From Gammaproteobacteria bacterium (GTDB lineage: Bacteria; Pseudomonadota; Gammaproteobacteria; CAKMZV01), in contig CBDCOD010000019.1 of NCBI GenBank assembly GCA_965219665.1, positions 30,070 to 94,069 on the forward strand: a stretch of DNA of 64,000 bases, read 5' to 3'. Positions 12,024 through 64,000 of the stretch are shown here, one piece after another. Position numbers and translations under genes: made by a program. The notes under the pieces were generated by a model. The model worked only from the letters and a program-made list of their open reading frames with translations, searched no databases and had not been told where the DNA came from. Positions within the stretch are counted from its first letter, which is position 1; each line of letters starts with the position of its first letter.

Positions 12024-12113
12024 TACAACCCTTACAATTTTTGACGATAAATCACAAAATTATCATTTTGTAGATTGTTACTTCTAATTTTAATTTTAGG
12101 AGGGCGAGCCTTC

Positions 12114-12797
12114 TTAAAACTGCCAGCCTTGATTTCTGAGTAGGCCCGCCAGTTTAGGCCAACGCGTGCGTTTTTCAGGAAAATGCGATAACTGAAAGAT
12201 TCTGGCACCGCTAAATTTCTTAATGGCTTCCATGTTATCCATCAACAGCTTAGACTCTCCTGCCGCATCGTTGACTATAACACTATGCAGTGCAATACCT
12301 TCCTGCTGCAAGACATTGAGTGCTAACAAAGCATGATTGATACACCCTAGCCTGTTACGCACAACCAAAACTGCAGGCAATTTTAAGCGCTTTGCCAAGT
12401 CGGCACATAATCCATCTTCTGCCATTGGTGAGTACACACCACCTGCCCCCTCAACCAGCAAGAAATCGTCCGCTGTAACACCTCGCAAAACCGCATCCTG
12501 TAACTGTGTAATCGTTATGGGAGTCCCTGCTCTACGAGCTGCCAAGTCAGGCGCAACTGCATCCTCAAAAGCAAAGGGAGTTACCATATCTGGATTATTG
12601 TCAGTACCACTTGCCTCTATGAGAGCCTGCGTATCTTCGCACATGAGCGTCTTATCTGCCTGAGAGAGGCAGCCTGATGCAACTGGCTTGCGTGGCACCA
12701 CCCTATATTTCTGCCCACGCAATAAGTGTGCTATAGCAGCAGCAACTTCCGTTTTTCCTACTTCAGTATCGGTCCCTGTAACAAACAAACCCTGCAT
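12114..12797 (-). CDS. bioD: dethiobiotin synthetase
   Basis: LFVTGTDTEVGKTEV P-loop and a BioD-like fold, 227 aa. Confidence 0.85.
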   Translation of the reverse strand: MQGLFVTGTDTEVGKTEVAAAIAHLLRGQKYRVVPRKPVASGCLSQADKTLMCEDTQALIEASGTDNNPDMVTPFAFEDAVAPDLAARRAGTPITITQLQDAVLRGVTADDFLLVEGAGGVYSPMAEDGLCADLAKRLKLPAVLVVRNRLGCINHALLALNVLQQEGIALHSVIVNDAAGESKLLMDNMEAIKKFSGARIFQLSHFPEKRTRWPKLAGLLRNQGWQF

Positions 12798-47525: not shown

Positions 47526-48662
47526 TTAACCTGAGCAGGTCAACTGCACACTACTCTGTATGCTGTAACCCATATCTATCTTACAAATACGGTAATAACG
47601 CGCTATAGACTCCCCTAATATATCCGTTAAGCGCTTATTGATTTTTGACACCACTTCAGATATACGGGGGGATAATTCGTGCTGATCACCTTCACCTACC
47701 CCCCATGTCTTCTTTACATCCTGAAAACGCCCTGCACTAGTAAGTGGCCTTAATAATTTAAGGAACAACGCTGTATCAAAAGCAGTCCAACTGACCCGCT
47801 CATTCACCTCAGTCTTACATAACAACAACTGATAAAAAGCAGCCTGTAGTGGCGGTAACTCCAGTGTTGTACCACCATGCAACATAAAGGACGCTTTCCC
47901 CCTCTCCCAATGAATGCTGGGGGGGTGCTGCATTTGTCTTATATAGCTTTTAATTTCCCCAAAACGCGTAATACGCTGTAAAAACGCTTGCGATAAATTA
48001 TCACGCGCTGACAAAATCGGCAAACTAATCAGTGAAACACGCGCCTCTTTAGCATCTAACGCTTCACCGCTGGCTGTCACAACGGTCTCTTCTCTTGGAT
48101 AATAAAAATCAGAGCACTCATACTGCTTATCAACCAAAACATGCGACAACACATCCTGTGGACGCGCATAAATAGACATTAAATAGCCCAGATAAAAGCT
48201 CATCGTTTTGCGCCCCCCTGCAAGTGAGGCATGCAAAATGCTATCGGTATCAGCCGTAAATTTTTGCACTAAACTGGCAAGCAAATCAGCACATAACACA
48301 CTGTTCTCCACACTATTAACATCCTCAATAATACCATCTGTTGACATAATAGAATGAATCTTAAGCCAATCTTTAGGCATATCCTTTAGCCCAAAATCGG
48401 CACAAAATCGGCGCAAAACACCCCCTTGATCCAGCACACCCAATCGCTGCACACCCACCAGTGTGGTTACCACATGGATCTCAGTTGGTATAAAAGCAGG
48501 CTCTTGCTTAACTAAAGCATACAGTGTCTCCGTAATAACAGATGGACTAACACCTGCCACACACAATAAAATTTTCCGTTCAGTATTCATTTTTAGTACT
48601 GGTTTGCATTCGTATTTACAGCTGGTATTACAGCCCTTTTTATTATCCTGCATTATCGTCAT
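47526..48662 (-). CDS. CARF-domain protein (Csx1/Cas_NE0113-like), C-terminal domain unassigned
   Basis: ILLCVAGVSPSVITETLYAL is the hallmark CARF N-terminal motif, and ASLAGGRKTMSF is the second CARF motif. No obvious R-x4-6-H HEPN motif in the C-terminal ~150 aa. The true start may be the internal Met at 48590. Confidence 0.7.
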   Translation of the reverse strand: MTIMQDNKKGCNTSCKYECKPVLKMNTERKILLCVAGVSPSVITETLYALVKQEPAFIPTEIHVVTTLVGVQRLGVLDQGGVLRRFCADFGLKDMPKDWLKIHSIMSTDGIIEDVNSVENSVLCADLLASLVQKFTADTDSILHASLAGGRKTMSFYLGYLMSIYARPQDVLSHVLVDKQYECSDFYYPREETVVTASGEALDAKEARVSLISLPILSARDNLSQAFLQRITRFGEIKSYIRQMQHPPSIHWERGKASFMLHGGTTLELPPLQAAFYQLLLCKTEVNERVSWTAFDTALFLKLLRPLTSAGRFQDVKKTWGVGEGDQHELSPRISEVVSKINKRLTDILGESIARYYRICKIDMGYSIQSSVQLTCSG

Positions 48663-48896: not shown

Positions 48897-49682
48897 ATGT
48901 CACAGAAAACCATGTTGCAAAAATTTATACAAAAAAACCTTCACCTAAAAAGATATGCGGCACTCACTATGCTCGCTGGAGCTTTCTTGCTTTCTGGCTG
49001 TGCTGCCATAAAAACCGCAATTGAACACAGTGACTTGGAGGTGCAAACCAAAATGTCTAGCACCATCTTTTTAGAGATAAGTGATACGCTAGAAAAAACC
49101 ATATACGTTGACATCCGCAACACCAGTGACAAGCCCATCAATGTATCTCCAGCCATCCAAACGGCGCTTCAGAAAAAAGGCTACACAATCGTTACTAAAC
49201 CCAAAGATGCCTTTTACTTCTTACAGGGCAACATCTTATATGTCGGCGAAAAAAGCCCCTCTGCACTACAAGACCAAATGGCAGCAGGCTATGGTGCTAA
49301 TGGTGCAGGCGTTGCAACGGGAGCTGCAGTCGGAATTCTGGCGTCTAGATCTGGAAACCGTGGAGAAGCTGCTGTAGCAGGCGCGGTCGTTGGCGGCGCT
49401 ATTGAAGTCATCTCTGGCTCGCTGGTAGAAAACGTAACCTACTCCATGCTAACCGATATTCAAATATCAGAGCGCTCATCCGAAATAGTTGCTCAGACTC
49501 AAGAAAGCAATTTAAAGCAAGGCGAATCCTCCAGCGTGAAGCAAAGCAGTAGTAGGCAAACCAATCGCAAAAAGTACCAAACGCGCATTCTATCCAGTGC
49601 TAACCAAGTCAACTTAGACTGGGAGGCAGCAAGACCCGCTTTAGAAGAAGGCTTAGCAAAATCCATATCAGGTATTTTCTAA
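48897..49682 (+). CDS. traT: TraT complement-resistance / surface-exclusion outer-membrane lipoprotein homolog
   Basis: Lipobox LLSGC, then AIKTAIEHSDLEVQTKMSSTIFLE... and ...KYQTRILSSANQVNLDWEAARPALEEGLAKSISGIF. These parallel F-plasmid TraT nearly block for block ([24 protein letters not shown]... [37 protein letters not shown]). GGAG SD 7 nt upstream. Confidence 0.85.
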   Translation: MSQKTMLQKFIQKNLHLKRYAALTMLAGAFLLSGCAAIKTAIEHSDLEVQTKMSSTIFLEISDTLEKTIYVDIRNTSDKPINVSPAIQTALQKKGYTIVTKPKDAFYFLQGNILYVGEKSPSALQDQMAAGYGANGAGVATGAAVGILASRSGNRGEAAVAGAVVGGAIEVISGSLVENVTYSMLTDIQISERSSEIVAQTQESNLKQGESSSVKQSSSRQTNRKKYQTRILSSANQVNLDWEAARPALEEGLAKSISGIF

Positions 49683-49850: not shown

Positions 49851-50621
49851 ATGTCAGAAACACTATTTTTCATTATTTTTATTACACTCTGCATTGTCCT
49901 TGCAATAAAAACCAAAAGCCTGCCCTCAGCAGAGGAGCGGCACAAAATGCGCTTGCAGAAAAACCAGCAAAGACGATTAAGCCATGCTGGCAAAATCAGA
50001 AAAGCAAGAAGAAGCGGCTCAAGCCGTGGAGGAGGGTTAAACCATGTCGGGCTTGGCATGGCAGCGGGTGCAGCAGGATTGGCAGCATACAGCACCCTAT
50101 CCAACAGCGATGATGCTATCGCTTCATCAAACACCTCTACAGCCTTTGATGATAGTTCCTCAAACATCACCAGTTTTGACATAAACCCTGCAAATGGACT
50201 GCCCATGGTGGATGGAATAGGTAGCATAGATATTGGAGGCAATACCTATGGCACCGACTCCGATACCTTTGATGATAGTTCCTCAAACACCACCAGTTTT
50301 GACATAAACCCTGCAAGTGGACTGCCCATGGTGGATGGAATAGGTAGCATAGATATTGGAGGCAATACCTATGGCACCGACTCCGATACCTTTGATGATA
50401 GTTCCTCAAACACCACCAGTTTTGACATAAACCCTGCAAGTGGACTGCCCATGGTGGATGGAATAGGTAGCATAGATATTGGAGGCAATACCTATGGCAC
50501 CGACTCCGATACCTTTGATCATAGTTTCTCATCCTTTGATGACAGCTTTTCATCCTTCGATGACAGCTTTTCATCCTTCGATGACAGCTTTTCATCGTCC
50601 TCTTTTGACGATGATTGGTAA
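49851..50621 (+). CDS. membrane-anchored acidic repeat protein (3 x 41-aa repeats plus SFDDSFSS mini-repeats)
   Basis: N-terminal TM helix, then three near-identical 41-aa units (DDSSSNTTSFDINPASGLPMVDGIGSIDIGGNTYGTDSDTF) and a C-terminal (SFDDSFSS)x3. Confidence 0.55.
   Translation: MSETLFFIIFITLCIVLAIKTKSLPSAEERHKMRLQKNQQRRLSHAGKIRKARRSGSSRGGGLNHVGLGMAAGAAGLAAYSTLSNSDDAIASSNTSTAFDDSSSNITSFDINPANGLPMVDGIGSIDIGGNTYGTDSDTFDDSSSNTTSFDINPASGLPMVDGIGSIDIGGNTYGTDSDTFDDSSSNTTSFDINPASGLPMVDGIGSIDIGGNTYGTDSDTFDHSFSSFDDSFSSFDDSFSSFDDSFSSSSFDDDW
50145..50513 (+). repeat. 3 x 123-bp near-perfect tandem direct repeat (coding), followed by 3 x 24-bp mini-repeats
   Basis: TTTGATGATAGTTCC... recurs at 50145, 50268, 50391 and 50514, a period of 123 bp with 1-2 mismatches per unit. 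Confidence 0.9.
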
Positions 50622-50688: not shown

Positions 50689-50997
50689 ATGAATAATCAA
50701 ACTAAAACATCAACAGCGAACTCTACAACACAAGAAACAATAACCGTTCCCCCAAGCAACAATGCATTACCTGCAATTGGAGTAACCGGATTATGTACAG
50801 GGTTGACGCTCGGCATAATGATTATGATCATAGGGCTACAGAATTTCCAAGTCAGTTTACTTGCAGGCTTACCGAGCCTTTTATACGGCGCATTAATTTG
50901 TATCATAGCCATTGCATGGAATGCGCTCTTAAGTGGCTTTGCCACTATGGTTCAAGCGCAAGTGGACATCCGAAACGCCACTGTTTCAAAAAAATAA
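50689..50997 (+). CDS. small membrane protein (about 103 aa, two predicted TM helices)
   Basis: MNNQTKTS... then hydrophobic GVTGLCTGLTLGIMIMIIGL and LPSLLYGALICIIAIAW. The ORF track's longer frame (50479..) overlaps the upstream gene, so an internal start was chosen. Confidence 0.35.
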   Translation: MNNQTKTSTANSTTQETITVPPSNNALPAIGVTGLCTGLTLGIMIMIIGLQNFQVSLLAGLPSLLYGALICIIAIAWNALLSGFATMVQAQVDIRNATVSKK

Positions 50998-51074
50998 ATA
51001 GCACAAGCAAAAAAATTCCAAGTAGAAAAAAAAATAGGCTATCATATAAAAAAATAAATAAAATGTGCTCTACT

Positions 51075-51368
51075 ATGAAAACAATACTCACCACCAGACA
51101 CCCTGCCACTGTGCAATGGCTTGCCCGTCAAGGCATTGCAGCAGAACAGGTCGATCATGTATCGTCTGACAGCATTACCCACCCGGTAAAACTCATTGGC
51201 AATGTCCCTCCAGCCATTGCCGCACAAGTATGCCAGCAAGGTGGCGAGTATTGGCACATTGACCTTGATTTACCTCAAACCATACGCGGCAAAGAACTCA
51301 GCGTTTCAGACTTAGAACAATATAAGGCTAAAATAATCCGCTATCACATTGAACAAATCACCTCTTAA
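51075..51368 (+). CDS. small hypothetical protein immediately upstream of cmr1 (candidate CRISPR accessory, Csx16-like?)
   Basis: About 97 aa starting MKTILTTRHPATVQWLARQG. Positioned as the first gene of the cmr cluster after an A-rich promoter-like region (51000-51060). Family assignment not verifiable from sequence alone. Confidence 0.35.
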   Translation: MKTILTTRHPATVQWLARQGIAAEQVDHVSSDSITHPVKLIGNVPPAIAAQVCQQGGEYWHIDLDLPQTIRGKELSVSDLEQYKAKIIRYHIEQITS

Positions 51369-51382
51369 ACGGCACCAAAACT

Positions 51383-52510
51383 ATGGAATTTATCAATCCT
51401 TTTGCAAACAACACGCTAACGGCAACCTATCAAATCAACACCCCCATGTTTTTAGGCGGTGCCGATGGCTGTGCAGATACCATAACCCCCCAATCTTTTA
51501 AGGGGCTCATGCGCTTTTGGTGGCGCGCATGGCAGTGGCAACATGCCAAGGGCAGCGACGATTCAGAAAAACTGGCTGACCTACACCACAAAGAAGCCCT
51601 ACTCTTTGGCTCCAGCGCACCAAAACCAAACACAAAAGACAAAAAGGAACTCTACGGTCAAGGTGCCTTTACTCCATAATCATTCGCCACGAGGAGCTCG
51701 AAAAACTGACCAACTGAGAACACGCAGAGTAAATTCAAATACCTTGCCTACGGCAATGCAATCGTTCAAAAAAGCAAATCCCGAAAAGGATACATCAAGA
51801 ACGCACAAAAGAACATACGAATCAAAAAAATGCACTTTTAAGCAGTTCAAGCTTACTTTAATAGACACAAGTACAGTTGACAGCTGAAGCATCAAGGCTA
51901 TGATGACGTAACCATAGACGCAACAACTTGACAACGACTTACTTAGACCTAATTGGAACTGGTAGGTAGTCTGGGCAGTCGCAAATCACGCAAAGGTTTC
52001 GGCAGTTCTATTCAGAAATAAGATGATTTTCTCTCACCCGCAGGTAATATCAAGAAAAAGTACTAAATGCACTTCTCAATGCCTACAACCAGATATGACA
52101 TGCGCGCTCCGTATCACTGCATTTTCCAAACTAATAAAATACGTAGCTGGCAGGCAGTGACAAAAAAAAACGACTCAACTGCATTGCTCCGCTTCCTGAC
52201 AAGGTCATTACCTGAAAGAGCTAGAACAAATGAGTGGTGCCTTTCCTCAGGCAACCGCCAAAAAGAAGGCATGAAAAATAAACGTCAACTGCTTGGTCTT
52301 AACGATTAAAGACATTAACGATAAACGATCGTCATAGCGCGCCCGTCTTTTTCCACATTCCATCAACAACAGTTCAAGACCCAAATATACGTTACTTCTT
52401 ATGCCATCAAACATGTACTTCACCCAGCACCTGCGCTCTTTGAGAAAACAACCATAGATGAAAAGAAGGGGCTGGCTGCCGTCAAGAACTATGTAAACAA
52501 TATAGCTCAA
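51383..52510 (+). pseudogene. cmr1: cmr1 remnant (type III-B RAMP Cmr1), disrupted by multiple stops and frameshifts
   Basis: The first 98 codons (51383-51679) carry the Cmr1 RAMP motif ITPQSFKGLMRFWWRAWQ, then terminate. The remaining ~830 bp before cmr2 carries only short ORFs in several frames (51543-51887, 52067-52309). Stops at 51677, 51707 and 51843 lie in the original frame. Confidence 0.6.
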
Positions 52511-52528
52511 ACCACGCAAAATTAAAAC

Positions 52529-54493
52529 ATGACAAAAAAATACTTTCACCTCACCATCGGCCCCGTGCAAGGGTTTATAGCCAGCGCGCGCCGTACCCGC
52601 GATTTATGGGCAGGATCCTTCATCCTCTCCACGCTATCTGCCGTTGCCATGCGCTCCGCTATCGCTCAAGAGAGCACAACAATCATTTTCCCCGCTGCTG
52701 ATAAGGGCTCTCTGCAATGGTTGGAACCCTCTAATACCCAACCTGAACGATTCCCTAACTACCCCAACCGCTTTATGGCAGAAGTGCCAGCAGACTTTAA
52801 CCCCCAAGCCGTAGTTACAGACATCAACGCAGCGTGGCAATCAATCGCCAATGCAGTCTGGACAGCAGACTTTCAAAACGCCAACGCAGAAACCAAAGCA
52901 ATCTGGGATAGACAAGTTGCACATTACTGGGAAATAAGTTGGGTGCTGACAGATGACCGAAAAGACACCAGTGCCTTAGATCGGCGCAAAAACTGGCGCA
53001 GCCACATCCCCCCTGCAGAACCCGGTAATAAATGTATGCTCATGGACAGCTTACAAGAGCTCTCCGGCAGCCTACAGGCAAGCACTATAGAACGACAAAC
53101 ATTCTGGAAAAAACAAGCACAAGTAAGCAAGAGATTAGATATAAGCGCCAAAGAACATTTAAGTGCCATTGCCTACATCAAACGCCGCCTAATCATTGCT
53201 CTTAAAGAAGGTATCCAGGCAGAATTAACAGGATGGCAATTAAACCTCAAAATAAATCCAAGTGATGCCAACGAAGACGACATTCGCTCTCAAGCACCCT
53301 CCACCGCTCACATTGCCGCCGTCGATTGGCTAAAAGCCATTAAAAACAAAATGCAAGATGATCAAACAGCCGAAGAAAAAATCAAAACCAACATCCGTAG
53401 ATTGATCGAATCCATTGAAGGCATACCCCAAACCAATCATTTACTCAAAAGCGAAAGCAATTCGACTCTCATTAAAGACAACAGAAAAAATTCTAACTTT
53501 AATAATCTTAGTTACTGTGAAGCCAGTCTGTTTTATCCACACCTTATCAATTCCCGCTTAGACTTGGAACTCACACCCGACAACGAGCGAAAGCTGCTCG
53601 ACAACCTCAACGCACTATGCGAGCGCGTAGACAAAAAGCCCACTGCCTTTTATGCAATACTGTGCATGGATGGCGACAGCTTTGGGCAATTCCTGAGCAA
53701 CTCACAAAACCACGCCAAAATCAGCAAAGGGCTAAATGCATTCACTAAAGAAGTGCCGAAAATAGTAAAACAACATACAGGCTTCACCCTCTATGCCGGC
53801 GGTGAAGATGTGCTTGCCATGCTCCCCATTAGCCAAGCCATTGCTTGCGCCCATAAGCTGCAACAAGAATTTACTGCAATTTTTCAAAGTAAGCTGAATA
53901 AGGGCGGAGAGAACGTACTGCCCACCATCAGCGCCGGCATCGTCTTTAGCCACCTCAAAATGCCGCTGATGCAAAGCATAAGCCGCGCCCATGAGGTCTT
54001 AGACGACATTGCCAAAGAACAAACCGGGCGTAATGCCATCGCCTGTGAAATCAACAAACCCTCTGGTCGTACCGCACAATGGGCAATGCCTTGGGACAAG
54101 GCAGCCGATGACGATGATAACAGCGCTATGATGATTAGCACTATTAGCGAGACATTAAAAGAGAAAAATCAAGCCGATGCCTCTTTTTCTACCAAATTCC
54201 TCTATCACTTTCGCAATAGTTATCACTTATTCAAAGATAAGAACAGCCATGAGGCAATAAGCAAAGATCTGCTCACTGCCTTAGTGATCAGCAACCTACA
54301 ACAAAGCAAAGGGCGCGCTGCTGAACTCAGCGCAGCAGAACAAAAACTTGCCAAACAAATCATCGATCAATCCTGGATTTATAAATCAGATAGCAAAGGG
54401 CAGCCCATACAAAGCGACCAAATAAGTGATGCCTTCGTAATGCTCGCCCGCTTCTTAGCCACTGATGGCATAGACGGAGGGAACCGCACATGA
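52529..54493 (+). CDS. cmr2: Cmr2/Cas10 lacking the HD nuclease domain, with a cyclase palm domain carrying GGED
   Basis: N-terminus LTIGPVQGFIASARRTRDLWAGSFILSTLS is the conserved Cmr2 D1 block. Palm motifs ILCMDGDSFGQF (about 53666-53690) and YAGGEDVLAML (GGED at 53801-53812). 654 aa, consistent with Cmr2 minus the ~215-aa HD domain. Confidence 0.85.
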   Translation: MTKKYFHLTIGPVQGFIASARRTRDLWAGSFILSTLSAVAMRSAIAQESTTIIFPAADKGSLQWLEPSNTQPERFPNYPNRFMAEVPADFNPQAVVTDINAAWQSIANAVWTADFQNANAETKAIWDRQVAHYWEISWVLTDDRKDTSALDRRKNWRSHIPPAEPGNKCMLMDSLQELSGSLQASTIERQTFWKKQAQVSKRLDISAKEHLSAIAYIKRRLIIALKEGIQAELTGWQLNLKINPSDANEDDIRSQAPSTAHIAAVDWLKAIKNKMQDDQTAEEKIKTNIRRLIESIEGIPQTNHLLKSESNSTLIKDNRKNSNFNNLSYCEASLFYPHLINSRLDLELTPDNERKLLDNLNALCERVDKKPTAFYAILCMDGDSFGQFLSNSQNHAKISKGLNAFTKEVPKIVKQHTGFTLYAGGEDVLAMLPISQAIACAHKLQQEFTAIFQSKLNKGGENVLPTISAGIVFSHLKMPLMQSISRAHEVLDDIAKEQTGRNAIACEINKPSGRTAQWAMPWDKAADDDDNSAMMISTISETLKEKNQADASFSTKFLYHFRNSYHLFKDKNSHEAISKDLLTALVISNLQQSKGRAAELSAAEQKLAKQIIDQSWIYKSDSKGQPIQSDQISDAFVMLARFLATDGIDGGNRT

Positions 54494-55572
54494 ACAACAC
54501 CATGCAAACCACCCACATCACCCTCACCCCCAACGACAGCCTGTTCTTTCGTGAATCCCGCCCTATGGAATCAGTCGGCGGCGCTATCCTAGAAAGCCAG
54601 TTTCCACCCAACCCCCAAACCCTTATTGGCGCCCTAAAAGGCTATGTTGGCGAGCAATATGGTGTGGACTTTAAAACCGTTCGCGAAAACACTAAAAAGG
54701 GCAAGCCCTATACAAAAGAGGGCTTCACCATGGACTTTGGTGACAGCAACGCAGACCTCTCCATAACCGATATGGCACTACGCCATCAAGACACGGGCAT
54801 AGGCACAGACTACTACCCTGCCCCTCTCTTTGTGGCTTACAGCGAAACCGATAAGCAATATGCTCTCATTCAACCCAGTGCGCAATCAACTGAATGCGAT
54901 TTAGGCAACGTACACTTACCCACCCTCCCTAAAGAGAAGACGGGCTATAAACCCTTAGAAAACGCTTGGCTGAGTAGTAAAGACTACACCAATGTCCTTC
55001 AAGGCAAACTGCCCACGAGCCACCTTAAAAAAAGCGCCATCCTTAAGGATGAGTTTCATCTTGGCATCAGCATTGACAAAGAGAGCAACACCGCAGAAGA
55101 CCACAAACTCTATCAAAGCATGCACACCCGCCTCAAGCAAGGCATGCAGCTGCATCTCACGCTCCGACACCGTAAAGACATACAAATCAACAACGGAACC
55201 ATCCGCTTAGGCGCAGAAGGAAGAAGTGCCCAACTCACAATCATCGAATCGCCCGAAAGCATCACCTCCACCCCTAAAAATAACAAAATAAGCCTAATCT
55301 TAACCACCCCCGCACTGTTCAAAAACACAGACGCACTGCATGAAGCAATAGCGCAATACGGCACCCTGATCAGCGCCTGCTTAGGCAAAACCACCCGAAT
55401 GGGCGGCTGGAATTTAGCCCAAAATCAACCACGAGAAGCCATCTCAGCCATTCCCGCTGGCAGCACGTGGTTCGTTGAGGCAAGCCCTAACGCATGCCCC
55501 CCTGCCGCCATTGGCGAGCAAACAACTAAAGGCTTTGGCATCGTCCGTTGCGGCACCTGGCAGCACCTATAA
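54490..55572 (+). CDS. cmr3: Cmr3
   Basis: N-terminus LTPNDSLFFRESRPM...SQFPPNPQTLIGALKG is typical of Cmr3. C-terminal G-rich loop TTKGFGIVRCG. ATGA overlap with cmr2. Confidence 0.8.
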   Translation: MNNTMQTTHITLTPNDSLFFRESRPMESVGGAILESQFPPNPQTLIGALKGYVGEQYGVDFKTVRENTKKGKPYTKEGFTMDFGDSNADLSITDMALRHQDTGIGTDYYPAPLFVAYSETDKQYALIQPSAQSTECDLGNVHLPTLPKEKTGYKPLENAWLSSKDYTNVLQGKLPTSHLKKSAILKDEFHLGISIDKESNTAEDHKLYQSMHTRLKQGMQLHLTLRHRKDIQINNGTIRLGAEGRSAQLTIIESPESITSTPKNNKISLILTTPALFKNTDALHEAIAQYGTLISACLGKTTRMGGWNLAQNQPREAISAIPAGSTWFVEASPNACPPAAIGEQTTKGFGIVRCGTWQHL

Positions 55573-55597
55573 ACACCCCAAAATTGAGGAATATAAT

Positions 55598-56443
55598 ATG
55601 AAAAACACCATACTTGGACTACACGCACAAACCGCCATCCACGCAGGATCAGGGCAATCATTGGATGTCATCGACCTCCCCATTCAGCGCGAAGCCCACT
55701 CAGGCTACCCCGTTATCTTTGGTTCATCGCTCAAAGGCGCCCTGCGCGCCCATGCTGACCACAACAACGCTGAACACCTCAGCACCATCTACGGTTCAGA
55801 AAATGCGGAACACGCCAGCGCCATCCGCATCAGCGATGCCAAGCTCATCGCCCTGCCGGTGCGCTCACTCACCACCCACTTTCGCCTTGTAACCTGCCCA
55901 CACCTCTTAGAACGCCTCAACCGCGACCTCGCCCAAATTGGCAAGAATACATTAGAAATACCCAGCGTTAAAAATGAAACTGAGATTCGCACCGCTGATC
56001 AAAAAGATCAAACAAACCTATTCTTAGAGGAGTACCGCTACACCGTACGCACCTGTGGGAAACTACCGCACTGGCAACAACAAATAGCGGAACTCACCGG
56101 ACAAAACAGCGAACAGTTAGCAAACCTATCCGTCATCTCCAATGACCAGTTTGCTCACATCTGCCAAACCGCCACTGCCATTGCCCCACACATTGCCATT
56201 GACAATAAAAACAAAACCGTCAAAGGCGGCGCACTCTGGTTTGAAGAAACCCTACCCCCCGAAACGCTCCTCTACAGCCTCATCAGCGCGGTTGATGCTC
56301 GACATAAAGACACAACATTAAAAGCGACTGAAGTGCTTAACGCATTCAAGCAGCCTCTAACAGAAAGCTATCTCCAAGTCGGCGGCAACGAAACCGTGGG
56401 CATGGGTTGGTGCAAGGCGACGGTAACTGGAGGTGCACAATGA
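55598..56443 (+). CDS. cmr4: Cmr4 (backbone RAMP, target-RNA cleaving subunit)
   Basis: MKNTILGLHAQTAIHAGSGQSLDVIDLPIQRE...IFGSSLKGALRAHA are the RAMP G-rich and catalytic-loop motifs. The start was chosen at the ATG at 55598, which has a GAGGA SD; the ORF track begins at 55475. Confidence 0.9.
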   Translation: MKNTILGLHAQTAIHAGSGQSLDVIDLPIQREAHSGYPVIFGSSLKGALRAHADHNNAEHLSTIYGSENAEHASAIRISDAKLIALPVRSLTTHFRLVTCPHLLERLNRDLAQIGKNTLEIPSVKNETEIRTADQKDQTNLFLEEYRYTVRTCGKLPHWQQQIAELTGQNSEQLANLSVISNDQFAHICQTATAIAPHIAIDNKNKTVKGGALWFEETLPPETLLYSLISAVDARHKDTTLKATEVLNAFKQPLTESYLQVGGNETVGMGWCKATVTGGAQ

Positions 56444-56838
56444 GTAATACGATTACACCCCAAACCATTGAGCAACAGCGCGCAGCGTTTGCATACCAAT
56501 TAGTCACAGCTCATAAAAAGAACGATCGACTCAAAGCCTACGCCCGTAACCTACCAGGCATGATACTCACCAACGGCTTTGGGCAAGCCATGGCGTTTTG
56601 CCTATCTAAAAGCGGCAAGAATAACAGCAATGAAGAACAAGCCTATACAGCCCTGCAACAAGGCATCTTTGAATGGCTTGGGGCTGAACCGCAAAAACTG
56701 CTTAATGGTGGCTCAGACATCGTTGCCGCCATTACTGAACTTGACCAACACCGATATCAACTCGCCACTGCCGAAGCCCTTGCTCTATGCAAATGGATCA
56801 AGCAACTCGCCACCGCTCTCATTGAAGATACAGACTAA
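56440..56838 (+). CDS. cmr5: Cmr5 (small alpha-helical subunit)
   Basis: About 132-aa helical protein between cmr4 and cmr6. ATGA overlap with the cmr4 stop. Confidence 0.7.
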   Translation: MSNTITPQTIEQQRAAFAYQLVTAHKKNDRLKAYARNLPGMILTNGFGQAMAFCLSKSGKNNSNEEQAYTALQQGIFEWLGAEPQKLLNGGSDIVAAITELDQHRYQLATAEALALCKWIKQLATALIEDTD

Positions 56839-56867: not shown

Positions 56868-58126
56868 ATGCCCATGTCAAACCCATCAATGTTGCCACTA
56901 CACAAATCTTGTAAAGACGCAGCCAAGCAATTAGATTCACACCTTGGTCTCTCAGGTTCACACCTTGGTCTCTACTTTGATAAATACTTCTCCTACTCCC
57001 GCTCTCCAAATAATAACATTGAAGCCGCACCTGAAAACAAAAAAGAATTTCTAAAAAAATTCAACAAAGCTAACATCCCACCATCGCTTGAAAATGCCAA
57101 CATCAATCAAGTACGACTCATCCAAAAATTAAACGGCACATTCAAAGCCTTCAAAACCACCTCCTCCTTTGTAACCGGCATGGGGCAAGATCACCCCTTA
57201 GAAAATGGCTTTGCTTTTCACCCCACCTACGGCACCCCCTACCTCCCCGGCAGCAGTGTCAAAGGCATGCTGCGCCACTTCTTTACCCACCACTACCAAT
57301 GGGGAAATGAAGATAAAGCAACATTCCTCAACCAAGTATTCGGCAGCGATAATCCCAAGCAACCCGCCATAGGAAACTACCTGTTTTTTGATGCCCTCCC
57401 TACCGAGACCGTCACAATGCACACCGAAATCATGACCCCGCACTACGGCGATTGGTACGCAAAAGGAGGCGACAAAACAGAAAATACAAAAAACGACACA
57501 TCATCCCAGGCGATTGGCACGAACCAATCCCTATCCAATTCCTTGCTGTCAAAAACGCCACCTTCCTCTTTGCCATCGCCCCGCGCAATGGCACAACCGA
57601 GCAGCCTGACTACCTCTCCTTTCTCTTTAAAGGACTCGACTGCATCCTCATGCACCTTGGCGCTGGTGCCAAAACTGCCACCGGCTTCGGTTATATGGCT
57701 TTTAATGAAGAACAAACTGAAAAATCAGAAGAAAATGCGCTAACCCCCGAAGAAAAGAAAGAGCGCGAGCGAAAAATTGAAGAGCAGAAGCAAAAAGAGA
57801 TTAAAGAGAATGCATGGAAAGAAACTAAAGCAAAAGAACAGGCAGAAGCAGCAAAGCGAGCAGCATTTGACAGCACCCTATCTACAACAGATAAATGGTT
57901 TTTAGAGAAAAACTATGCAGAATGCTCTCCAGATGGCGATGCCCTGGTTTTCAAAATAACCAAGCCCAACAAGGCACTCAAAGACCCTGACTTATCCTCA
58001 AATTTTGAGTTAAAGAAGGCGGTCATTGAAGTCATACAGGTGCATAAAGAAAAACCCTATTCCCACACCTTCTGGGACAAAACAATACGCAAAAAGGTCA
58101 ACGATTCACTCAAAAAAATGAAATAA
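56868..58126 (+). pseudogene. cmr6: cmr6 with an internal frameshift (two overlapping reading frames, 56868-57743 and 57452-58126); it carries an unusual ~170-aa charged C-terminal extension
   Basis: Frame A has the RAMP block YGTPYLPGSSVKGMLRHFF. Frame B has the C-terminal G-rich loop HLGAGAKTATGFGYMAF. The frames switch between 57447 and 57517, where a 9-bp direct repeat GGCGATTGG flanks a 62-bp segment. Confidence 0.75.
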
Positions 58127-58191: not shown

Positions 58192-59127
58192 ATGAACTTA
58201 GAACTTATGCAACTAATAGAACAATTCGGCTTTAGCCTCTTCGTCTTCGCTTTAATCACCCTTCTGCTCATCTACCTCCTGATGGGCATAAAAATCGTAC
58301 CGCAAGCACAGCAATGGGTTATTGAGCGATTAGGCTCCTACAATCGCACCTTAGACGGTGGGCTCAACTACATCATACCCATCGTTGACTCTACACGCGC
58401 CAAATACCAAACACAAGAACAAGTCATTGACATTCCCTCGCAGCGCGTTATCACCCGTGATAACGTTTCCATCTCTATTGATGGACTCGTATTCATCCGC
58501 ATCACCAACGCCAAACAAGCCATCTATGGCGTATTAGACATGCGACACGCCATCTCACAATTGGCACAAACCACGCTCCGCTCCGAAATTGGCAAAATGG
58601 ACTTAGACGACTCCCTCTCCTCACGCGACCACCTTAACGCCGCACTCCTCACCGCATTAGATAATGCTGCAGGTGGCTGGGGTGTCAAAGTAACGCGTGT
58701 AGAAATATCTGACATTGACGTACCCAGCGAAGTCAAAACAGCCATGGAACTGCAACTGCGCGCCGAGCGCGAACGCCGCGCCACTGTTACCAAAGCCGAA
58801 GGCGATAAAAACGCCGCCATTGCTCAAGCCGAAGGCGAGCGGCAACGTGCCTTTAAAGAAGCTGAAGCTATTGAGCGCACGGCAGACGCTAAACAATATG
58901 AGCAAATTCAACTTGCCGAAGGACAAAAGCAAGCGATGGAACTCATCAACCTGGCAATGGAAAACAACCCCCAAGCTGCCGATTTTTTACTTGCAAAAGA
59001 CCGCATCAAAGCCTTCAATGACCTTGCCAAAAACACCAGTCAAGACAAAGTTATCGTACCGTACGAAGCCAGTGCCCTCGTTGGCGCACTCTCAATTATC
59101 ACTGAGAACCTTACTAATAAAAAATGA
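58192..59127 (+). CDS. SPFH/band-7 (stomatin/paraslipin-like) membrane protein
   Basis: N-terminal TM helix, then KIVPQAQQWVIERLGSYNRTLDGGLNYIIP, the canonical SPFH start. C-terminal Ala/Glu-rich coiled coil. 311 aa. Confidence 0.85.
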   Translation: MNLELMQLIEQFGFSLFVFALITLLLIYLLMGIKIVPQAQQWVIERLGSYNRTLDGGLNYIIPIVDSTRAKYQTQEQVIDIPSQRVITRDNVSISIDGLVFIRITNAKQAIYGVLDMRHAISQLAQTTLRSEIGKMDLDDSLSSRDHLNAALLTALDNAAGGWGVKVTRVEISDIDVPSEVKTAMELQLRAERERRATVTKAEGDKNAAIAQAEGERQRAFKEAEAIERTADAKQYEQIQLAEGQKQAMELINLAMENNPQAADFLLAKDRIKAFNDLAKNTSQDKVIVPYEASALVGALSIITENLTNKK

Positions 59128-59555
59128 CCACTCTACTCATCCCAGCTATACCCGCGTGGTATCTCATCATCATCGGCATAGCCATTGTTGGTGTTGAACT
59201 GTTTTTCATGAACCTATTCGTCATACTCTGGTTTGGACTGGCAGCCATATTCATTGGTGCCCTCAACTTATTTTTACCCTTTTCTCACGGCGAATATCAA
59301 CTACTACTCATTGCACTAATCGGCAGCACTGCCCTGTTCATGTATCATAAAAAATACAAACCATCACGCACCAAAAATAAACACTTAGACTCCTATACTA
59401 CAGGTGGAACAGGTAGCGTAATCACCACTAATCAAGGCATTAAAATCAATTATCAGGGAACGCTCTGGAGCATTGCCCCACCAGCCCCCACCAACCTAAA
59501 AGACGGCGACAACGTCATCATCAAAGAAATCAAGTCCAATCAAGTCGTTTTATGA
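59124..59555 (+). CDS. NfeD-like short-form membrane protein (partner of SPFH proteins)
   Basis: Three hydrophobic helices, then a C-terminal OB-fold-like region (GTGSVITTNQGIKINYQGTLWSIAP...GDNVIIKEI), as in YuaF/YbbJ. ATGA overlap with the SPFH gene. Confidence 0.7.
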   Translation: MTTLLIPAIPAWYLIIIGIAIVGVELFFMNLFVILWFGLAAIFIGALNLFLPFSHGEYQLLLIALIGSTALFMYHKKYKPSRTKNKHLDSYTTGGTGSVITTNQGIKINYQGTLWSIAPPAPTNLKDGDNVIIKEIKSNQVVL

Positions 59556-60589
59556 TTCTCATATCACTGATTGGACCACAAATTCTCCCCAATATTTTTG
59601 CGCTCCGACACTACGGCAATGAAATCAGCAAGCACTTCATACTCTGCGATAAAAACCCTAAAAATCTGGCAGCTGCCCAATTGCTTAAAGATTTTTGTGA
59701 ACCAAGCGGCATGCCAACCATCGTCATAACAGCCAACCTCAAACAAGCCCACAGTTGCTACAACGTTTGCTGCCAAATCATTGAAGACAACCGTGCCGTG
59801 CAAACCATTCTCAATGCCACCTGTTCGCTCAAAACTGCCGCTCTTGGTGCTTTCATGGCAATGCAACAGCACAATCAGCGCACCATCTATGTTGACGGGC
59901 AAAGAATCCAACGCGTCCACCACTCAGAGGATCACAACACCATCGCCCCTATTAAAGCCCGCATCAGTATTGCAGACTACCTACAAGCATACGGCTTTAG
60001 CATCACACCCTCTACCCAAGACCACACCATAGGGGAAAAATTTGGCAACTACCTCTTCGACGACAACTTGCTCAGAATATGGATGAGGGATAGTAAATAC
60101 ACCCCCCACGAACGGATTGCAAAATGGCTCAGAAGCAACAACATACTCGCAGGCAACCGCACGATAAAACCTGAAAAACGGGCATGGTATTCTGGCACCT
60201 GGTTTGAGCAATGGGTCTATGTCACACTGAAAAAACACTTTGCAAAAAATCCTGCTGTATCCGACATTTGTAGCAGCTTTAAGGTGAAAAAACATGCAGA
60301 AAATGAAATAGACGTTGCCTTTGTTCATAATAACATCCTGCACCTGATTGAATGCAAAGCAGGAAAGCCCGAAAAACAAAGCCAAGAAGGCCTGCGCTTC
60401 TCCAGCGTTGCTGAAACCATTGGTGGCACCTACACCAAATGCGCCGTACTATTTTTGCGCCCAACAAAAGACACCATAAAAGAACGCGCCAGCGACACCA
60501 CCAACTTACACTACATTGACAACATTGAAAACACAACCGACTTATGCACCAAAGTAGATCAATGGCTTGAAAAATCAAATTTCTCATGA
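59552..60589 (+). CDS. CARF + PD-(D/E)xK nuclease (Can2/Card1-like cOA-activated nuclease)
   Basis: N-terminus MILISLIGPQILPNIFAL is the CARF strand-1 motif. The C-terminus has E...IDVAFVHNNILHLIECKAGK at 60311-60360, i.e. D...E-C-K. 345 aa. ATGA overlaps on both sides. Confidence 0.7.
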   Translation: MILISLIGPQILPNIFALRHYGNEISKHFILCDKNPKNLAAAQLLKDFCEPSGMPTIVITANLKQAHSCYNVCCQIIEDNRAVQTILNATCSLKTAALGAFMAMQQHNQRTIYVDGQRIQRVHHSEDHNTIAPIKARISIADYLQAYGFSITPSTQDHTIGEKFGNYLFDDNLLRIWMRDSKYTPHERIAKWLRSNNILAGNRTIKPEKRAWYSGTWFEQWVYVTLKKHFAKNPAVSDICSSFKVKKHAENEIDVAFVHNNILHLIECKAGKPEKQSQEGLRFSSVAETIGGTYTKCAVLFLRPTKDTIKERASDTTNLHYIDNIENTTDLCTKVDQWLEKSNFS

Positions 60590-61452
60590 ACCCCAAAAAC
60601 AACCCGGCACAAAACTTTAAGCTAAAAAATGCACTCACTAGCACCTTTGGCAGTCTGGACCTAACAACCATAGGAATCGCCATACTCCTATTAGCACTTA
60701 TTGGCTGGAGCGCAGACAGCCTACTCAACACCCTCACCTTTAGCATAGCTTCCCCCTTAACGCACCTTAGCATAGCAGCACTATCACTCGCTGCCTTATC
60801 CCTTCTTATAAAAATACTGCATAAAAAAGCACAAGGCATAGGCAACAACCTCCTCATTGAAGCCACCCAAAACAAACCCAAACGCTTAGATGCCCAAAAC
60901 CTTATTTTTATCGTATCGCCTGCAAGGCACTTTGCCGATATAGATAAAAAACTACAATGCCCAGATACACAAAAAAACCTACAAGAATTGATAGAAGAAG
61001 AATCCACAGAAACGAAACCGACTACACAACCCAAAAAAAAATACCAATGGTATATGCCCTATAGCACCATCAAAGAACATCAGCCCAAAAACATCTATCC
61101 CATCTTTACTTCAGGCGAATATGGCAGCAGTAAACAAAAAGAGACTTTCTTAAATCTCTTTAGAGGCATATTCCCCGACAAAACCATTCATGATGCAGAT
61201 TATCAAACCCTACAATCCACCGATTTGACTGAGCTATCCAAAGCCTACGACAAGATAGAACAAAAAGTTCTCAACGACGACAAATACCGCCCCAACCAAA
61301 TTCTCGTTGATGTAACAGGCGGTCAAGCCTCCATGAGCGCCATGCTCGCTGTCAACTCCACCATTGATGATGCCATCATCAGCTACGTGGACACCAATGA
61401 CTATAAAATTCACTACTTTGACTTTCGCAGCCACAACCCATCAGAAGAATGA
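60586..61452 (+). CDS. two-TM membrane protein with a C-terminal CARF domain (Cam1-like membrane effector)
   Basis: Hydrophobic helices at about aa 27-48 and 58-80. The C-terminal ~180 aa has the CARF-like motifs LIFIVSPA and ILVDVTGGQASMSAM at 61301-61340 (D-x-T-G-G-x-x-x-M). 288 aa. Confidence 0.55.
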   Translation: MNPKNNPAQNFKLKNALTSTFGSLDLTTIGIAILLLALIGWSADSLLNTLTFSIASPLTHLSIAALSLAALSLLIKILHKKAQGIGNNLLIEATQNKPKRLDAQNLIFIVSPARHFADIDKKLQCPDTQKNLQELIEEESTETKPTTQPKKKYQWYMPYSTIKEHQPKNIYPIFTSGEYGSSKQKETFLNLFRGIFPDKTIHDADYQTLQSTDLTELSKAYDKIEQKVLNDDKYRPNQILVDVTGGQASMSAMLAVNSTIDDAIISYVDTNDYKIHYFDFRSHNPSEE

Positions 61453-62297
61453 ATGCCTTCCTCCCGCTATTCAAAATCCAAATAACCCTTACAGCCCTAT
61501 CCTCTATTACATTTCGCACTCCCCATCACAACATCATTTTAGATGCCTTCCTACGCTCACTCCTCAGCCAAGAGCAAAAAAAACAATACGCCACCACGCT
61601 TATCATCAGCCCCCAAACACCAATCCAAGCCATCACATACGGCAACGCCTACACCTTTAACATCACAGCCATTAACAATGCCCTTCTGCTTAGCCGGCTA
61701 CTATTCCAACTCAAATCCTTACCATTCTCTGCCCGTATTCGAGACACAACAGCCCCGCTACGCCACAACCTCAAATTCCACCAAGCCACCTGTATGCACA
61801 CAGGTCATAAAGCCAACAGCATTAAAGACCTCACCCCAATCCAAGCCATAGACCTTGAAAACAGAGCATTAGAACTCGCCTCGCATAGCCAGCTCCCCAT
61901 AACCCTAAACTTAGCACGCCTCAAAAAAAGCCACCTTAAAAAAACCAGCAACACCGAACAAAACTTCGCCCAAAACAGCACCGAACTAACCGCTGAACTC
62001 CTATTAGAGCGCATCAACACCACCATAAGCCACCTACACCGTGCGCTCAACATAAATGCCACACCGCAGCCCCCTCTTCCTACAGCCACCACAACAACGC
62101 AATACTGCAAATGGATAAACCTACCCTACTTTGACAAAAACAAGCAGGAAAAAACATGCGGCGGACTCAACGCACAACTCACGCTAAGACCGCAAAACTG
62201 GTCATTGGACCACTACCGCCAACTGGCACTGATTGAACACGTAGGCATTGGACAACGCCGCACATCTGGTTTTGGCACGCTCACCATCAACGCATGA
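61449..62297 (+). CDS. cas6: Cas6-like RAMP endoribonuclease (standalone)
   Basis: C-terminal glycine-rich loop HVGIGQRRTSGFGTL (G-h-G-x5-G-h-G) typical of Cas6. 282 aa. ATGA overlaps with its neighbours. Confidence 0.55.
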   Translation: MNAFLPLFKIQITLTALSSITFRTPHHNIILDAFLRSLLSQEQKKQYATTLIISPQTPIQAITYGNAYTFNITAINNALLLSRLLFQLKSLPFSARIRDTTAPLRHNLKFHQATCMHTGHKANSIKDLTPIQAIDLENRALELASHSQLPITLNLARLKKSHLKKTSNTEQNFAQNSTELTAELLLERINTTISHLHRALNINATPQPPLPTATTTTQYCKWINLPYFDKNKQEKTCGGLNAQLTLRPQNWSLDHYRQLALIEHVGIGQRRTSGFGTLTINA

Positions 62298-64000
62298 AAA
62301 TTCCCCTACCGAAACTACCTTCCCAGCAAGCCCTCAGCGTTGACCTCCAGTTTATACAGCCCCAAAATCTTCCACTCTACCATGAACCTGTTATTCAAAA
62401 TGCACTCAAGGCACTCACCCGCCAACTGCTCCCCTCAAACACCTCCACCCCTTTTACCCTCATCTGCCCCGAAAGCGCCCGCACCCACTATCCTGCAAAC
62501 ACCTCCTACTACTTTTGCATAATCAGCCTCAGCATAGACTCCATACAACCCCTCTGGCAGCAACTCATCATCAAACTGCGCCAACTCCCGATAGAATCAA
62601 CGCCCTTTATCAAAAACTGCACCCTCATATCGCTACGAAACCTCTTAGACGGCACGCCCGTATCCAATGCCCAATCCTTAACCCAATACACCTTTGACTT
62701 AGCACTATCGCAAGCAACAGACTGGCGCAACACACAAACCACAACCCTTAATTGGCGCTGGATTAGCCCTGCCCATACCCCTATCGGCAACACCTTATGC
62801 CGCGATAAAACCGAGCTATCTGCCAAACACCTCTGTGAACAAATCGCACACAGCCTATACGATCTCATCCAGCACAATAACAGCACCGAAACAAACCACT
62901 TATTTCATCTATGGACTCAATCCCAGTACAAGCATATAGCAATACATAAAGCCGATCTATATTGGATAGACACCCCTTATCACCCAAATCAAACCAATTT
63001 CTCTGGCATATCAGGTAACTTTACATTTAGCCTGTCTGAAGAGGCCCCCACCAAATTATTAGCCCTCATCATCTACGCTCAGAATATTGGCATTGGCCTT
63101 AATTACCAAAAAGGATTTGGCAAATACCGCCTCTCAAGCCCAAACGATACGTACTTCTCCACACTATCCAACCACTGCATGCCCATCACGCGCTGTGAAT
63201 CATTGCTCAAGCACTTTACGCACCCCCAAATGATTGAACGCGCCATTGCAGAATTAGAGCAAAAACCCAACATCGACAAGCTCAGCGACAAAACCCATGC
63301 CCAAATACAATCTGCCATTGGTCAAGTTCGCAAACAAGATTACACCCCTCCTAATTTATTTGGGTTCACCACGCCTAAAAAAGACGGCACCGACCGCCTA
63401 CTCGCTGTCGCTCCCCTATATGATCGCATCCTACAAAAAGCCTGTGCCATCGCACTCACACCCACCTTAGAAGCTATCATGAGCCAAGCCTCCTTCGGCT
63501 ACCGCAAAGGACTATCACGCCAGCAAGTCCGCTATGCTATTCAGCAATACTACAGGCAAGGCTACAAGTGGGTCTTGGAATCCGACATTGATGATTTCTT
63601 TGACTCCATTAACCGCACGCTACTCATCAATCGCCTTGCCAGTTTTTTTGGCCCTGACCCACTATGGAACCTCATGGAACAATGGCTCAACAGACCCATA
63701 ATCTATCAAGGGCACACTATCCAACGTCCCGATGGCATACCACAAGGCTCACCTCTCAGCCCACTACTAGCAAACTTTATTCTGGACGACTTTGACTCTG
63801 ACCTTGAAGCCTATGGTTTCAAACTCATTCGCTTTGCTGACGACTTTGTTATTCTCTGCCGCTCTAAATCTGAAGCCATAGAAGCACGCAGTGCCGTAAC
63901 GAAACATCTCAAAGAAATCAATCTCAAACTCAATCCAGAAAAAACCCACATTAGCGAAATAGACCACGGGTTCCGCTTTTTAGGTTACCTTTTCCACGAA
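62294..64000 (+). CDS. Cas6-reverse transcriptase fusion (N-terminal part of a Cas6-RT-Cas1 protein), truncated by the window end
   Basis: Manual translation finds no stop from the ATG at 62294 to 64000. The N-terminal ~330 aa end in a second Cas6 G-rich loop, NIGIGLNYQKGFGKYRL. After that come RT motifs: RLLAVAPLYDRILQ, QGSPLSPLLANFIL and the catalytic box FADDFVIL. Absent from the ORF track because it is edge-truncated. Confidence 0.8.
   Translation, partial: MKIPLPKLPSQQALSVDLQFIQPQNLPLYHEPVIQNALKALTRQLLPSNTSTPFTLICPESARTHYPANTSYYFCIISLSIDSIQPLWQQLIIKLRQLPIESTPFIKNCTLISLRNLLDGTPVSNAQSLTQYTFDLALSQATDWRNTQTTTLNWRWISPAHTPIGNTLCRDKTELSAKHLCEQIAHSLYDLIQHNNSTETNHLFHLWTQSQYKHIAIHKADLYWIDTPYHPNQTNFSGISGNFTFSLSEEAPTKLLALIIYAQNIGIGLNYQKGFGKYRLSSPNDTYFSTLSNHCMPITRCESLLKHFTHPQMIERAIAELEQKPNIDKLSDKTHAQIQSAIGQVRKQDYTPPNLFGFTTPKKDGTDRLLAVAPLYDRILQKACAIALTPTLEAIMSQASFGYRKGLSRQQVRYAIQQYYRQGYKWVLESDIDDFFDSINRTLLINRLASFFGPDPLWNLMEQWLNRPIIYQGHTIQRPDGIPQGSPLSPLLANFILDDFDSDLEAYGFKLIRFADDFVILCRSKSEAIEARSAVTKHLKEINLKLNPEKTHISEIDHGFRFLGYLFHE

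Follow-up and report, generated by a model that had tools for sequence, protein, structure and literature searches.

The described CRISPR systems that come closest to the locus reported here encode Cas6, a reverse transcriptase (RT) and Cas1 in one polypeptide. In the Cas6-RT-Cas1 protein of Thiomicrospira, solved with Cas2 (7KFT/7KFU), the R37A substitution in Cas6 lowers repeat cleavage from 97% to 12% and also reduces RT activity by 57% (PMC8102632), and mutagenesis has further addressed D540 and K574 of the RT as well as R832/R834/R835 and H873 of Cas1 (Wang et al. 2021, PMC8102632). In Marinomonas mediterranea MMB-1, whose Cas6 domain (6DD5; Mohr et al. 2018) is of the same Cas6 family, a single fused Cas6 domain reportedly serves both CRISPR RNA (crRNA) biogenesis and RT-dependent spacer acquisition, and a role of the fused Cas6 in supporting the RT is known for both proteins. 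Because crRNA processing and RT support are entangled in one Cas6 domain in both cases, it is hard to tell what Cas6 contributes to the capture of spacers from RNA beyond cutting the repeats. Here we analyse a stretch of 64,000 nucleotides (nt) from a gammaproteobacterium (contig CBDCOD010000019.1 of assembly GCA_965219665.1; hereafter the window), in which an open reading frame (ORF) for a stand-alone Cas6 (ORF A) is directly followed by one for a Cas6-RT-Cas1 fusion (ORF B). The locus is best read as a type III-B system in which the Cas6 of the effector module and a complete Cas6-RT-Cas1 adaptation gene stand back to back, and we give a probability of roughly 0.55 to the reading that these genes mark the junction of two CRISPR modules in a co-oriented, translationally coupled operon, with a probable division of labour between the two Cas6 copies. 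The arrangement does not constitute a new system class. It is, rather, natural separation-of-function material, a free Cas6 lying beside a fusion without the tested catalytic arginine and the basic residues of the glycine-rich loop (G-loop), on which two questions can be put directly: are repeats still bound or cut by the fused domain, and does the RT need merely its presence?

The Thiomicrospira locus and the window are both type III loci of related gammaproteobacteria, and the closest relatives that we found come from Thiomicrospira, Hydrogenovibrio, Thiomicrorhabdus and metagenome-assembled genomes of Piscirickettsiaceae. The surroundings of the fusion gene are different. In the Thiomicrospira-type loci cas10 and fused or long RAMP genes abut it, there is no separate cas6, and the order is the last RAMP gene, the fusion gene, then cas2 and the array, whereas the window has a classical cmr1-6 operon, followed by accessory genes and a stand-alone Cas6 gene before the fusion. 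Likewise, where MMB-1 has one fused Cas6 for both jobs, the window has an extra free Cas6 directly upstream, and the fused domain itself is atypically diverged.

ORF A (61449..62297, plus strand) encodes a protein of 282 amino acids (aa) from the RT-Cas1-associated Cas6 family and closes the cmr/accessory operon as its last gene; between its start codon and the stop of an upstream 288-aa gene 4 nt are shared (ATGA), and its C-terminal end reads EHVGIGQRRTSGFGTLTINA, followed by the stop codon. In phmmer searches of the PDB it matched the Cas6 domain of 7KFT (E=3.7e-17, aa 21-277) and that of MMB-1, 6DD5 (E=5.6e-13, aa 2-277). An AlphaFold2 (AF2) model built with family sequences (pLDDT, the predicted local distance difference test score, 90; pTM, the predicted template modelling score, 0.86) displays a double ferredoxin-like fold of the RNA recognition motif type, and Foldseek comparison with the PDB returned 6DD5 as the best structural match (E=1e-20, TM, the template modelling score, 0.78), then 7KFT, and further the classical Cas6 proteins of Sulfolobus, Pyrococcus, Thermus and Streptococcus. 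Curated profiles do not recognise it: no Pfam match (PF10040/PF01881) was obtained, and TIGR01877 gave 17.2 bits, with a cut-off of 58.65, covering the G-loop alone; PF10040 returns merely a 'weak' score for many bona fide fused members too. Arg36 of ORF A (61554..61556, motif DAFLR) aligns with the active-site R37 of Thiomicrospira and H27 with the conserved histidine, while the G-loop GIGQRRTSGFG (aa 266-276, 62244..62276) has the pattern of the family consensus G-h-G-Q-R-R-x-x-G-h-G, including all four glycine columns of the G-h-G-x5-G-h-G loop that are conserved in 97-98 of 98 family members. Judged by homology and predicted fold, ORF A is thus a genuine stand-alone Cas6.

When 1.84 billion representative proteins were searched exhaustively with HMMER, only 100 relatives of ORF A emerged, of which the nearest by E-value rank outside its own cluster is 30% identical and the highest identity listed is 36%, to a truncated fusion. 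Since nearly all matches are the N-terminal ~280 aa of Cas6-RT-Cas1 fusions of ~950-1000 aa, we regard ORF A as a free-standing member of a Cas6 family that is normally fused to RT-Cas1. Short matches (294-390 aa) could be taken for many further stand-alone Cas6 proteins; this was rejected, as most of them run into the fusion linker or sit at contig ends (e.g. P0161/L016) and are truncated fusions. The only verified genuine stand-alone protein among them is P0188, a 301-aa protein of similar G-loop architecture which, like ORF A, comes last in a III-B effector operon (L017/L018: cmr2-3-4-5-6, DUF6602, cas6, array) and overlaps its upstream neighbour. The P0188 locus differs from the window in having no adjoining RT-Cas1, P0188 is 27% identical to ORF A, and in neighbour-joining (NJ) trees ORF A stands, with weak support, beside the fused domains P0124, P0165 and P0191 and not beside P0188. 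Nevertheless, because P0188 holds the same terminal position in a cmr operon, with the array directly after it, it supports the view of ORF A as the Cas6 of the Cmr module.

ORF B (62294..64000, plus strand) begins with an ATG that overlaps the stop of ORF A, again as ATGA, and its frame is open to base 64000, where the end of the window cuts it after the first 569 of 950 codons. A phmmer search of all PDB chains aligned it colinearly over aa 5-569 with the Thiomicrospira fusion 7KFT/7KFU (E=2.5e-149). The Cas1 end, which lies beyond the window, was read from P0002, a protein of 950 aa that matches all 569 aa of ORF B with 100% identity and is the single such protein in a collection of 5.8 billion; besides it, no protein there is more than 48% identical to ORF B. 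P0002 is colinear with 7KFT from residue 5 to residue 943 (E=1.4e-284) and carries the Pfam domain Cas_Cas1 at aa 634-907 (E=4.7e-69), just as the original prediction, made from the letters of the window alone, had expected of the C-terminus. The equivalents of the RT residues D540 (in FADD) and K574 (in EKTH, on the RT helix) are kept, and so are those of R832/R834/R835 (in RTRRPP) and H873 (in GIYHQQ) of Cas1; the 7KFT chain has three extra N-terminal residues, so that the native number equals the chain number minus 3. Thus, with the same domain order as the Thiomicrospira protein and an overall identity of ~46-48% to it, ORF B is identified by its sequence as a Cas6-RT-Cas1 fusion with a Cas1 end and intact RT and Cas1 motifs. 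A group II intron or retron RT was considered as well and is ruled out by the full-length protein, which ends in Cas1 and not in a maturase domain; structures of group II RTs match only aa 327-567 of ORF B, and its score with TIGR04416, 223.6 bits, lies below the 300-bit cut-off, as expected for a non-maturase.

The Cas6 domain of ORF B (approximately aa 1-285, 62294..63148) is colinear with residues 6-307 of 7KFT, and its AF2 model (pLDDT 89.4) has 7KFT as the top Foldseek match (E=6e-21, TM 0.78), which indicates an intact fold despite an unusually diverged sequence. The proposal that both proteins with a G-rich loop are Cas6 is therefore borne out by sequence matches to 7KFT and 6DD5 and by the predicted folds, and the 282-aa ORF, the two loops and an RT open to the end of the window all lie where they had been placed. 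The N-terminal ~330 aa that had been assigned to Cas6 in ORF B were correctly recognized as Cas6 and overestimated in length, since the domain of ~285 aa is followed by a linker of ~55-75 aa, which separates it from the group II intron-like RT domain (aa 361-565, 63374..63988; Pfam RVT_1, E=3e-39). ORF B contains NIGIGLNYQKGFG at aa 264-276, with the G-loop GIGLNYQKGFG at aa 266-276 (63089..63121), in which the glycines are kept and the family Q-R-R is replaced by L-N-Y, as well as QGSPLSPLLANF and RFADDFVIL. The reading FADD rather than YADD (aa 514-517, nt 63833-63844) was accurate, and the peculiarity attached to it did not hold, because FADD is present in 35 of 45 full-length relatives and in the solved Thiomicrospira enzyme (PMC8102632).

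The effector association of the fusion is apparent from cmr2-cmr6, which lie upstream of it on the same strand, although cmr1 is disrupted and cmr6 frameshifted. How closely ORF A is tied to these genes is illustrated by two metagenome contigs from the ENA (L001 and L002), which carry a homologue of ORF A (P0001, 99% aa identity) and show ~97.5% nucleotide identity to the window from 52524 (cmr2) through ORF A. The match ends at 62338..62339, a recombination breakpoint located 45 nt, or 15 codons, into ORF B. Past it, L001 (10890-20849) contains an unrelated island with a tyrosine integrase at 11627-12613, a NucS_C-like gene, a gene for an 872-aa AAA_13/SMC-like ATPase and other genes, with the far end of the island beyond the available sequence; no tRNA was found at the breakpoint junction. 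The retained 5' stub indicates that cas6-RT-cas1 was lost or replaced in the sister strains. The effector and adaptation modules are separable, since these strains keep ORF A without ORF B, and ORF A, staying with the effector operon, behaves as the Cmr module's own Cas6. The breakpoint is a clean case, found in nature, of the effector module and the adaptation module being exchanged as units. As side observations on these contigs, cas10/cmr2 of L002 contains ~26 tandem copies of the 9-nt unit AGAACGACA at 1544-1868, whereby its product reaches 736 aa in comparison with 652-654 aa, and an 87-nt direct duplication is located at 2743-2916 of L002.

The presence of two Cas6 genes side by side had been described as a duplication and as unusual. 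There are indeed two copies, however they are no recent tandem duplicates. BLASTP aligns ORF A with the Cas6 domain of ORF B with E=0.01 and in the C-terminal half only, their identity is 17%, each comes 98th of 99 when the members of a 100-sequence family alignment are ranked by closeness to the other, and in NJ trees they were never sisters in 60 bootstraps, by which a recent tandem duplication is ruled out and the two copies are shown to be old paralogues. The fused domain falls into the Thiomicrospira-type clade, with a sister group consisting wholly of Thiomicrospira/Piscirickettsiaceae in 39 of 60 bootstraps. The unusual character of the pair was supported, at the sample size available, by a scan of all ORFs of Cas6-RT-Cas1 loci with a Cas6-domain profile made from the family and ORF A, which covered GTDB genomes (L003-L012), JGI metagenomes (L019-L027) and further loci (L013-L015, L028, L029). 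With a threshold as loose as E<0.1, each locus still gave a single hit, namely the fused Cas6 itself, and no second family Cas6 was detected in any of them; the loci that are distinct and include several kb of upstream sequence number about 13. A pair of a free and a fused Cas6 is not described in the literature searched. One of the scanned loci is peculiar in another respect: on L028, a Logan contig (SRR31628394), a divergent Cas6-RT-Cas1 (P0048) adjoins a divergently oriented cas2 and a gene for a 1103-aa patatin-domain protein, and within the 8 kb upstream of it no type III effector gene can be recognised.

The two copies differ in what they have retained of the family's conserved residues. 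Conservation of at least 80% across 98 fused family members is reached in 38 columns, of which ORF A keeps 25 and ORF B 26, and the two sets are largely different. ORF A has R36, R157, R188 and the QRR of the G-loop, where ORF B has K39, H161, Q183 and LNY; the position of R37 is occupied by arginine in 88 of the 98 members. The assignment of Lys39 (62408..62410) to the position of the active-site arginine follows the HMMER alignment, while in a MAFFT alternative Arg43 of ORF B, one helix turn further, fills this column. With respect to Thiomicrospira, R37 has become lysine in ORF B and the loop segment QRRTS has become LNYQK; 5 of the 98 family members have no basic residue in the loop. ORF A has in turn lost the post-loop G-K-Y, situated at the domain's C-terminal end, from which the fusions run on into the RT linker. 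Common to both copies are the conserved histidine (H27 in ORF A, H30 in ORF B), the motif W-x-D/N-x-x-Y and the four loop glycines.

The fused domain also stands out by its rate of change. Cas6-domain identity was compared with RT-plus-Cas1 identity for all pairs of 45 full-length fusions. For pairs with 55-70% identity in RT/Cas1 the Cas6 identity is 49% on average, with a minimum of 34% (n=117), and for the 26 such pairs that involve ORF B it is 32% on average, with a maximum of 37%. The mean residual of ORF B, -0.114, lies ~2.8 standard deviations (sd) below the trend and is the most extreme negative value of the 45 (-0.059 comes second). The fused Cas6 domain has thus changed at a much higher rate than the RT and Cas1 parts of the same protein, as would be expected if a second Cas6 had relieved part of the constraint on it.

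A mechanism in which the two modules each rely on their own Cas6 can be outlined as follows. The effector module would comprise the cmr genes, the accessory genes of the cyclic-oligoadenylate response and ORF A, which most likely cuts the pre-crRNA at each repeat (hairpin, then 8-nt tag) and would pass the crRNAs to the Cmr complex. The adaptation module would begin with the complete 950-aa Cas6-RT-Cas1 gene, whose product, together with Cas2, would reverse-transcribe and integrate new spacers; its fused Cas6 domain, freed from crRNA maturation, would mainly keep the role of supporting the RT. This division of labour, which we infer from sequence, is compatible with the residue conservation, the rate analysis and the sister contigs, and is indirectly favoured by them. 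Our trust in the working model, with ORF A maturing the crRNAs for Cmr and the fused Cas6 mainly serving the RT-integrase, depends on how strictly it is worded, from slightly better than even down to tentative. The strict version, in which ORF A is the crRNA maturase for Cmr and the fused Cas6 cleaves weakly or not at all and only licenses the RT or tethers repeat RNA, the two having degenerated in a complementary manner after the joining of modules that each brought its own Cas6, is conceivable, and we put it at about one chance in three.

Several observations have to be set against the proposed division of labour, and the first of them concern the residues. ORF A is without 13 of the 38 family-conserved positions and is not obviously the better enzyme; it has lost the glutamate of the P-E motif and the R-x-C-R-D motif, which reads NFAQN. 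Lysine occupies the R37 position in 4 of the 98 family members, and two proteins with this lysine, P0048 (L028) and P0191 (L029), are the sole family Cas6 in their loci; therefore the change from arginine to lysine need not abolish cleavage, and the idea of a helper Cas6 as a general companion of such fusions is ruled out. One lysine remains in the loop of ORF B, and the ratio of nonsynonymous to synonymous changes (dN/dS) in ORF A between strains, computed from 3-4 substitutions, is uninformative. These sole-Cas6 fusions, the complete and confident Cas6 folds of both models and the histidine, W-x-D/N-x-x-Y motif and glycines shared by the two copies would all suit simple redundancy, with both Cas6 proteins acting on one common repeat and the additional copy a by-product of joining modules that each had a Cas6, and the breakpoint at 62338 supports such a modular origin. 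Under redundancy, though, the fused domain would be held by the usual double constraint, and its departure from the family trend, downward by ~2.8 sd and larger than that of any other of the 45 proteins, would not be expected; moreover, the losses of conserved positions in the two copies largely complement one another instead of being random. We consider redundancy unlikely.

A second set of difficulties lies in the effector genes. The reading frame of cmr1 (51383-52520) is open for 98 codons (51383..51679) and then interrupted by many stops and 1-nt indels, with 82% identity and 56 gap openings in comparison with the intact 354-aa gene of L001, and cmr6 is split by a net change of -4 nt around 57475-57499; both genes are intact in L001 and L002, where the cmr6 products have 411 aa and 417 aa. 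The lesions form dense clusters of 1-nt indels and could be assembly errors. If they are real, the effector served by ORF A may be defective in the strain of the window. They are also a sign that the locus might be eroding in this strain, with one or both Cas6 proteins being functionless relics and their odd residues due to relaxed selection, to which may be added that both Cas6 regions lie within the most extreme GC skew (-0.45 to -0.48), that both copies form long branches in the family, and that ORF B has already been lost from the sister strains. Against decay, apart from the possible assembly errors, speak the fact that four sequence variants of ORF A (window/P0122, P0001, P0123) are intact and carry 0-2 aa changes apiece, the full 950-aa frame of ORF B with intact motifs of the RT (FADD, K), Cas1 (RTRR, H, E/D) and the Cas6 glycine loop, and the confident AF2 folds of both proteins. 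Decay appears improbable to us, and should either decay or redundancy be true, there would be nothing out of the ordinary in this type III-B locus and its RT-Cas1 adaptation gene.

The remaining counter-evidence concerns the parts of a CRISPR system that would be expected next to the fusion gene. In related loci with enough downstream DNA, cas2 is found beside it, usually directly downstream, and most of them have an array. No CRISPR array was found in the window (1-64000) or in L001/L002, and in a Cas2 profile search with 8 related Cas2 queries the Cas2 of this genome was not among the best 120 of 358 matches. Arrays beside members of this Cas6 family were compared in L003, L004, L006, L008, L009, L011, L013-L015 and L017/L018. 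The 5' halves of their repeats vary, and the 3' end consists of a GGCC/AGCC hairpin and GTTA[A/C]GAC, in the form AGCC-GAAA-GGCT plus GTTAAGAC, with fused and stand-alone Cas6 alike; the repeat of the P0188 locus has the hairpin plus GTTACGAC. This conserved 3' motif is absent from the window even when 3 mismatches are allowed. As a curiosity, the 9-nt unit GGCCGTTCA is expanded within one of the repeats of the L017 array (7388-7565).

As a rule, Cas6 enzymes and their repeats co-vary, which, with the 17% identity of the two copies and their differences at conserved RNA-facing positions, could be taken to mean that ORF A and the fused Cas6 recognise different repeats or arrays, for example a Cmr array elsewhere and another one after cas2; the sister strains, in which ORF A is retained and no array lies within 10 kb, indicate that it can serve an array elsewhere. 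The repeats of all related loci, that of the stand-alone Cas6 of L017 included, share the design of hairpin and GTTA[A/C]GAC, which speaks against this reading; we regard two separate substrates as a quite improbable explanation.

The remaining genes of the region are arranged as follows. The type III-B effector genes on the plus strand are cmr2/cas10 (52529-54493), cmr3 (54490-55572), cmr4 (55595-56443), cmr5 (56437-56838) and cmr6, the last in two frames (56868-57743 and 57452-58126). Between cmr6 and ORF A, on the same strand, lie an SPFH/Band-7 gene (58192-59127), a gene for an NfeD-like 143-aa membrane protein (59124-59555), named solely from its position after the SPFH gene, one for a Card1 CARF-nuclease (59552-60589), and that of the 288-aa membrane protein (60586-61452), which has a weak match to the CARF profile TIGR02710; from the SPFH gene onward successive genes are joined by 4-nt overlaps. 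The same four accessory genes occupy this interval in L001 and L002, and the SPFH-NfeD pair within a type III operon deserves attention in its own right. Upstream of the operon are two more CRISPR-associated genes, Cas_NE0113 of the CARF family (47526-48662, minus strand) and Cas_VVA1548 (50793-51368), and between them a gene for a TraT-like lipoprotein (48897-49682), a 123-nt tandem repeat in 3.2 copies (50143-50531) and 21-nt repeats (50529-50596). The stretch with the strongest GC skew of the region (61200-63200), in which C greatly exceeds G on the coding strand, coincides exactly with ORF A plus the fused Cas6 domain, compared with values of approximately -0.2 for the cmr genes and -0.30 for the RT portion of ORF B, and such an extreme value over both Cas6 regions is compatible with fast, mutation-biased evolution.

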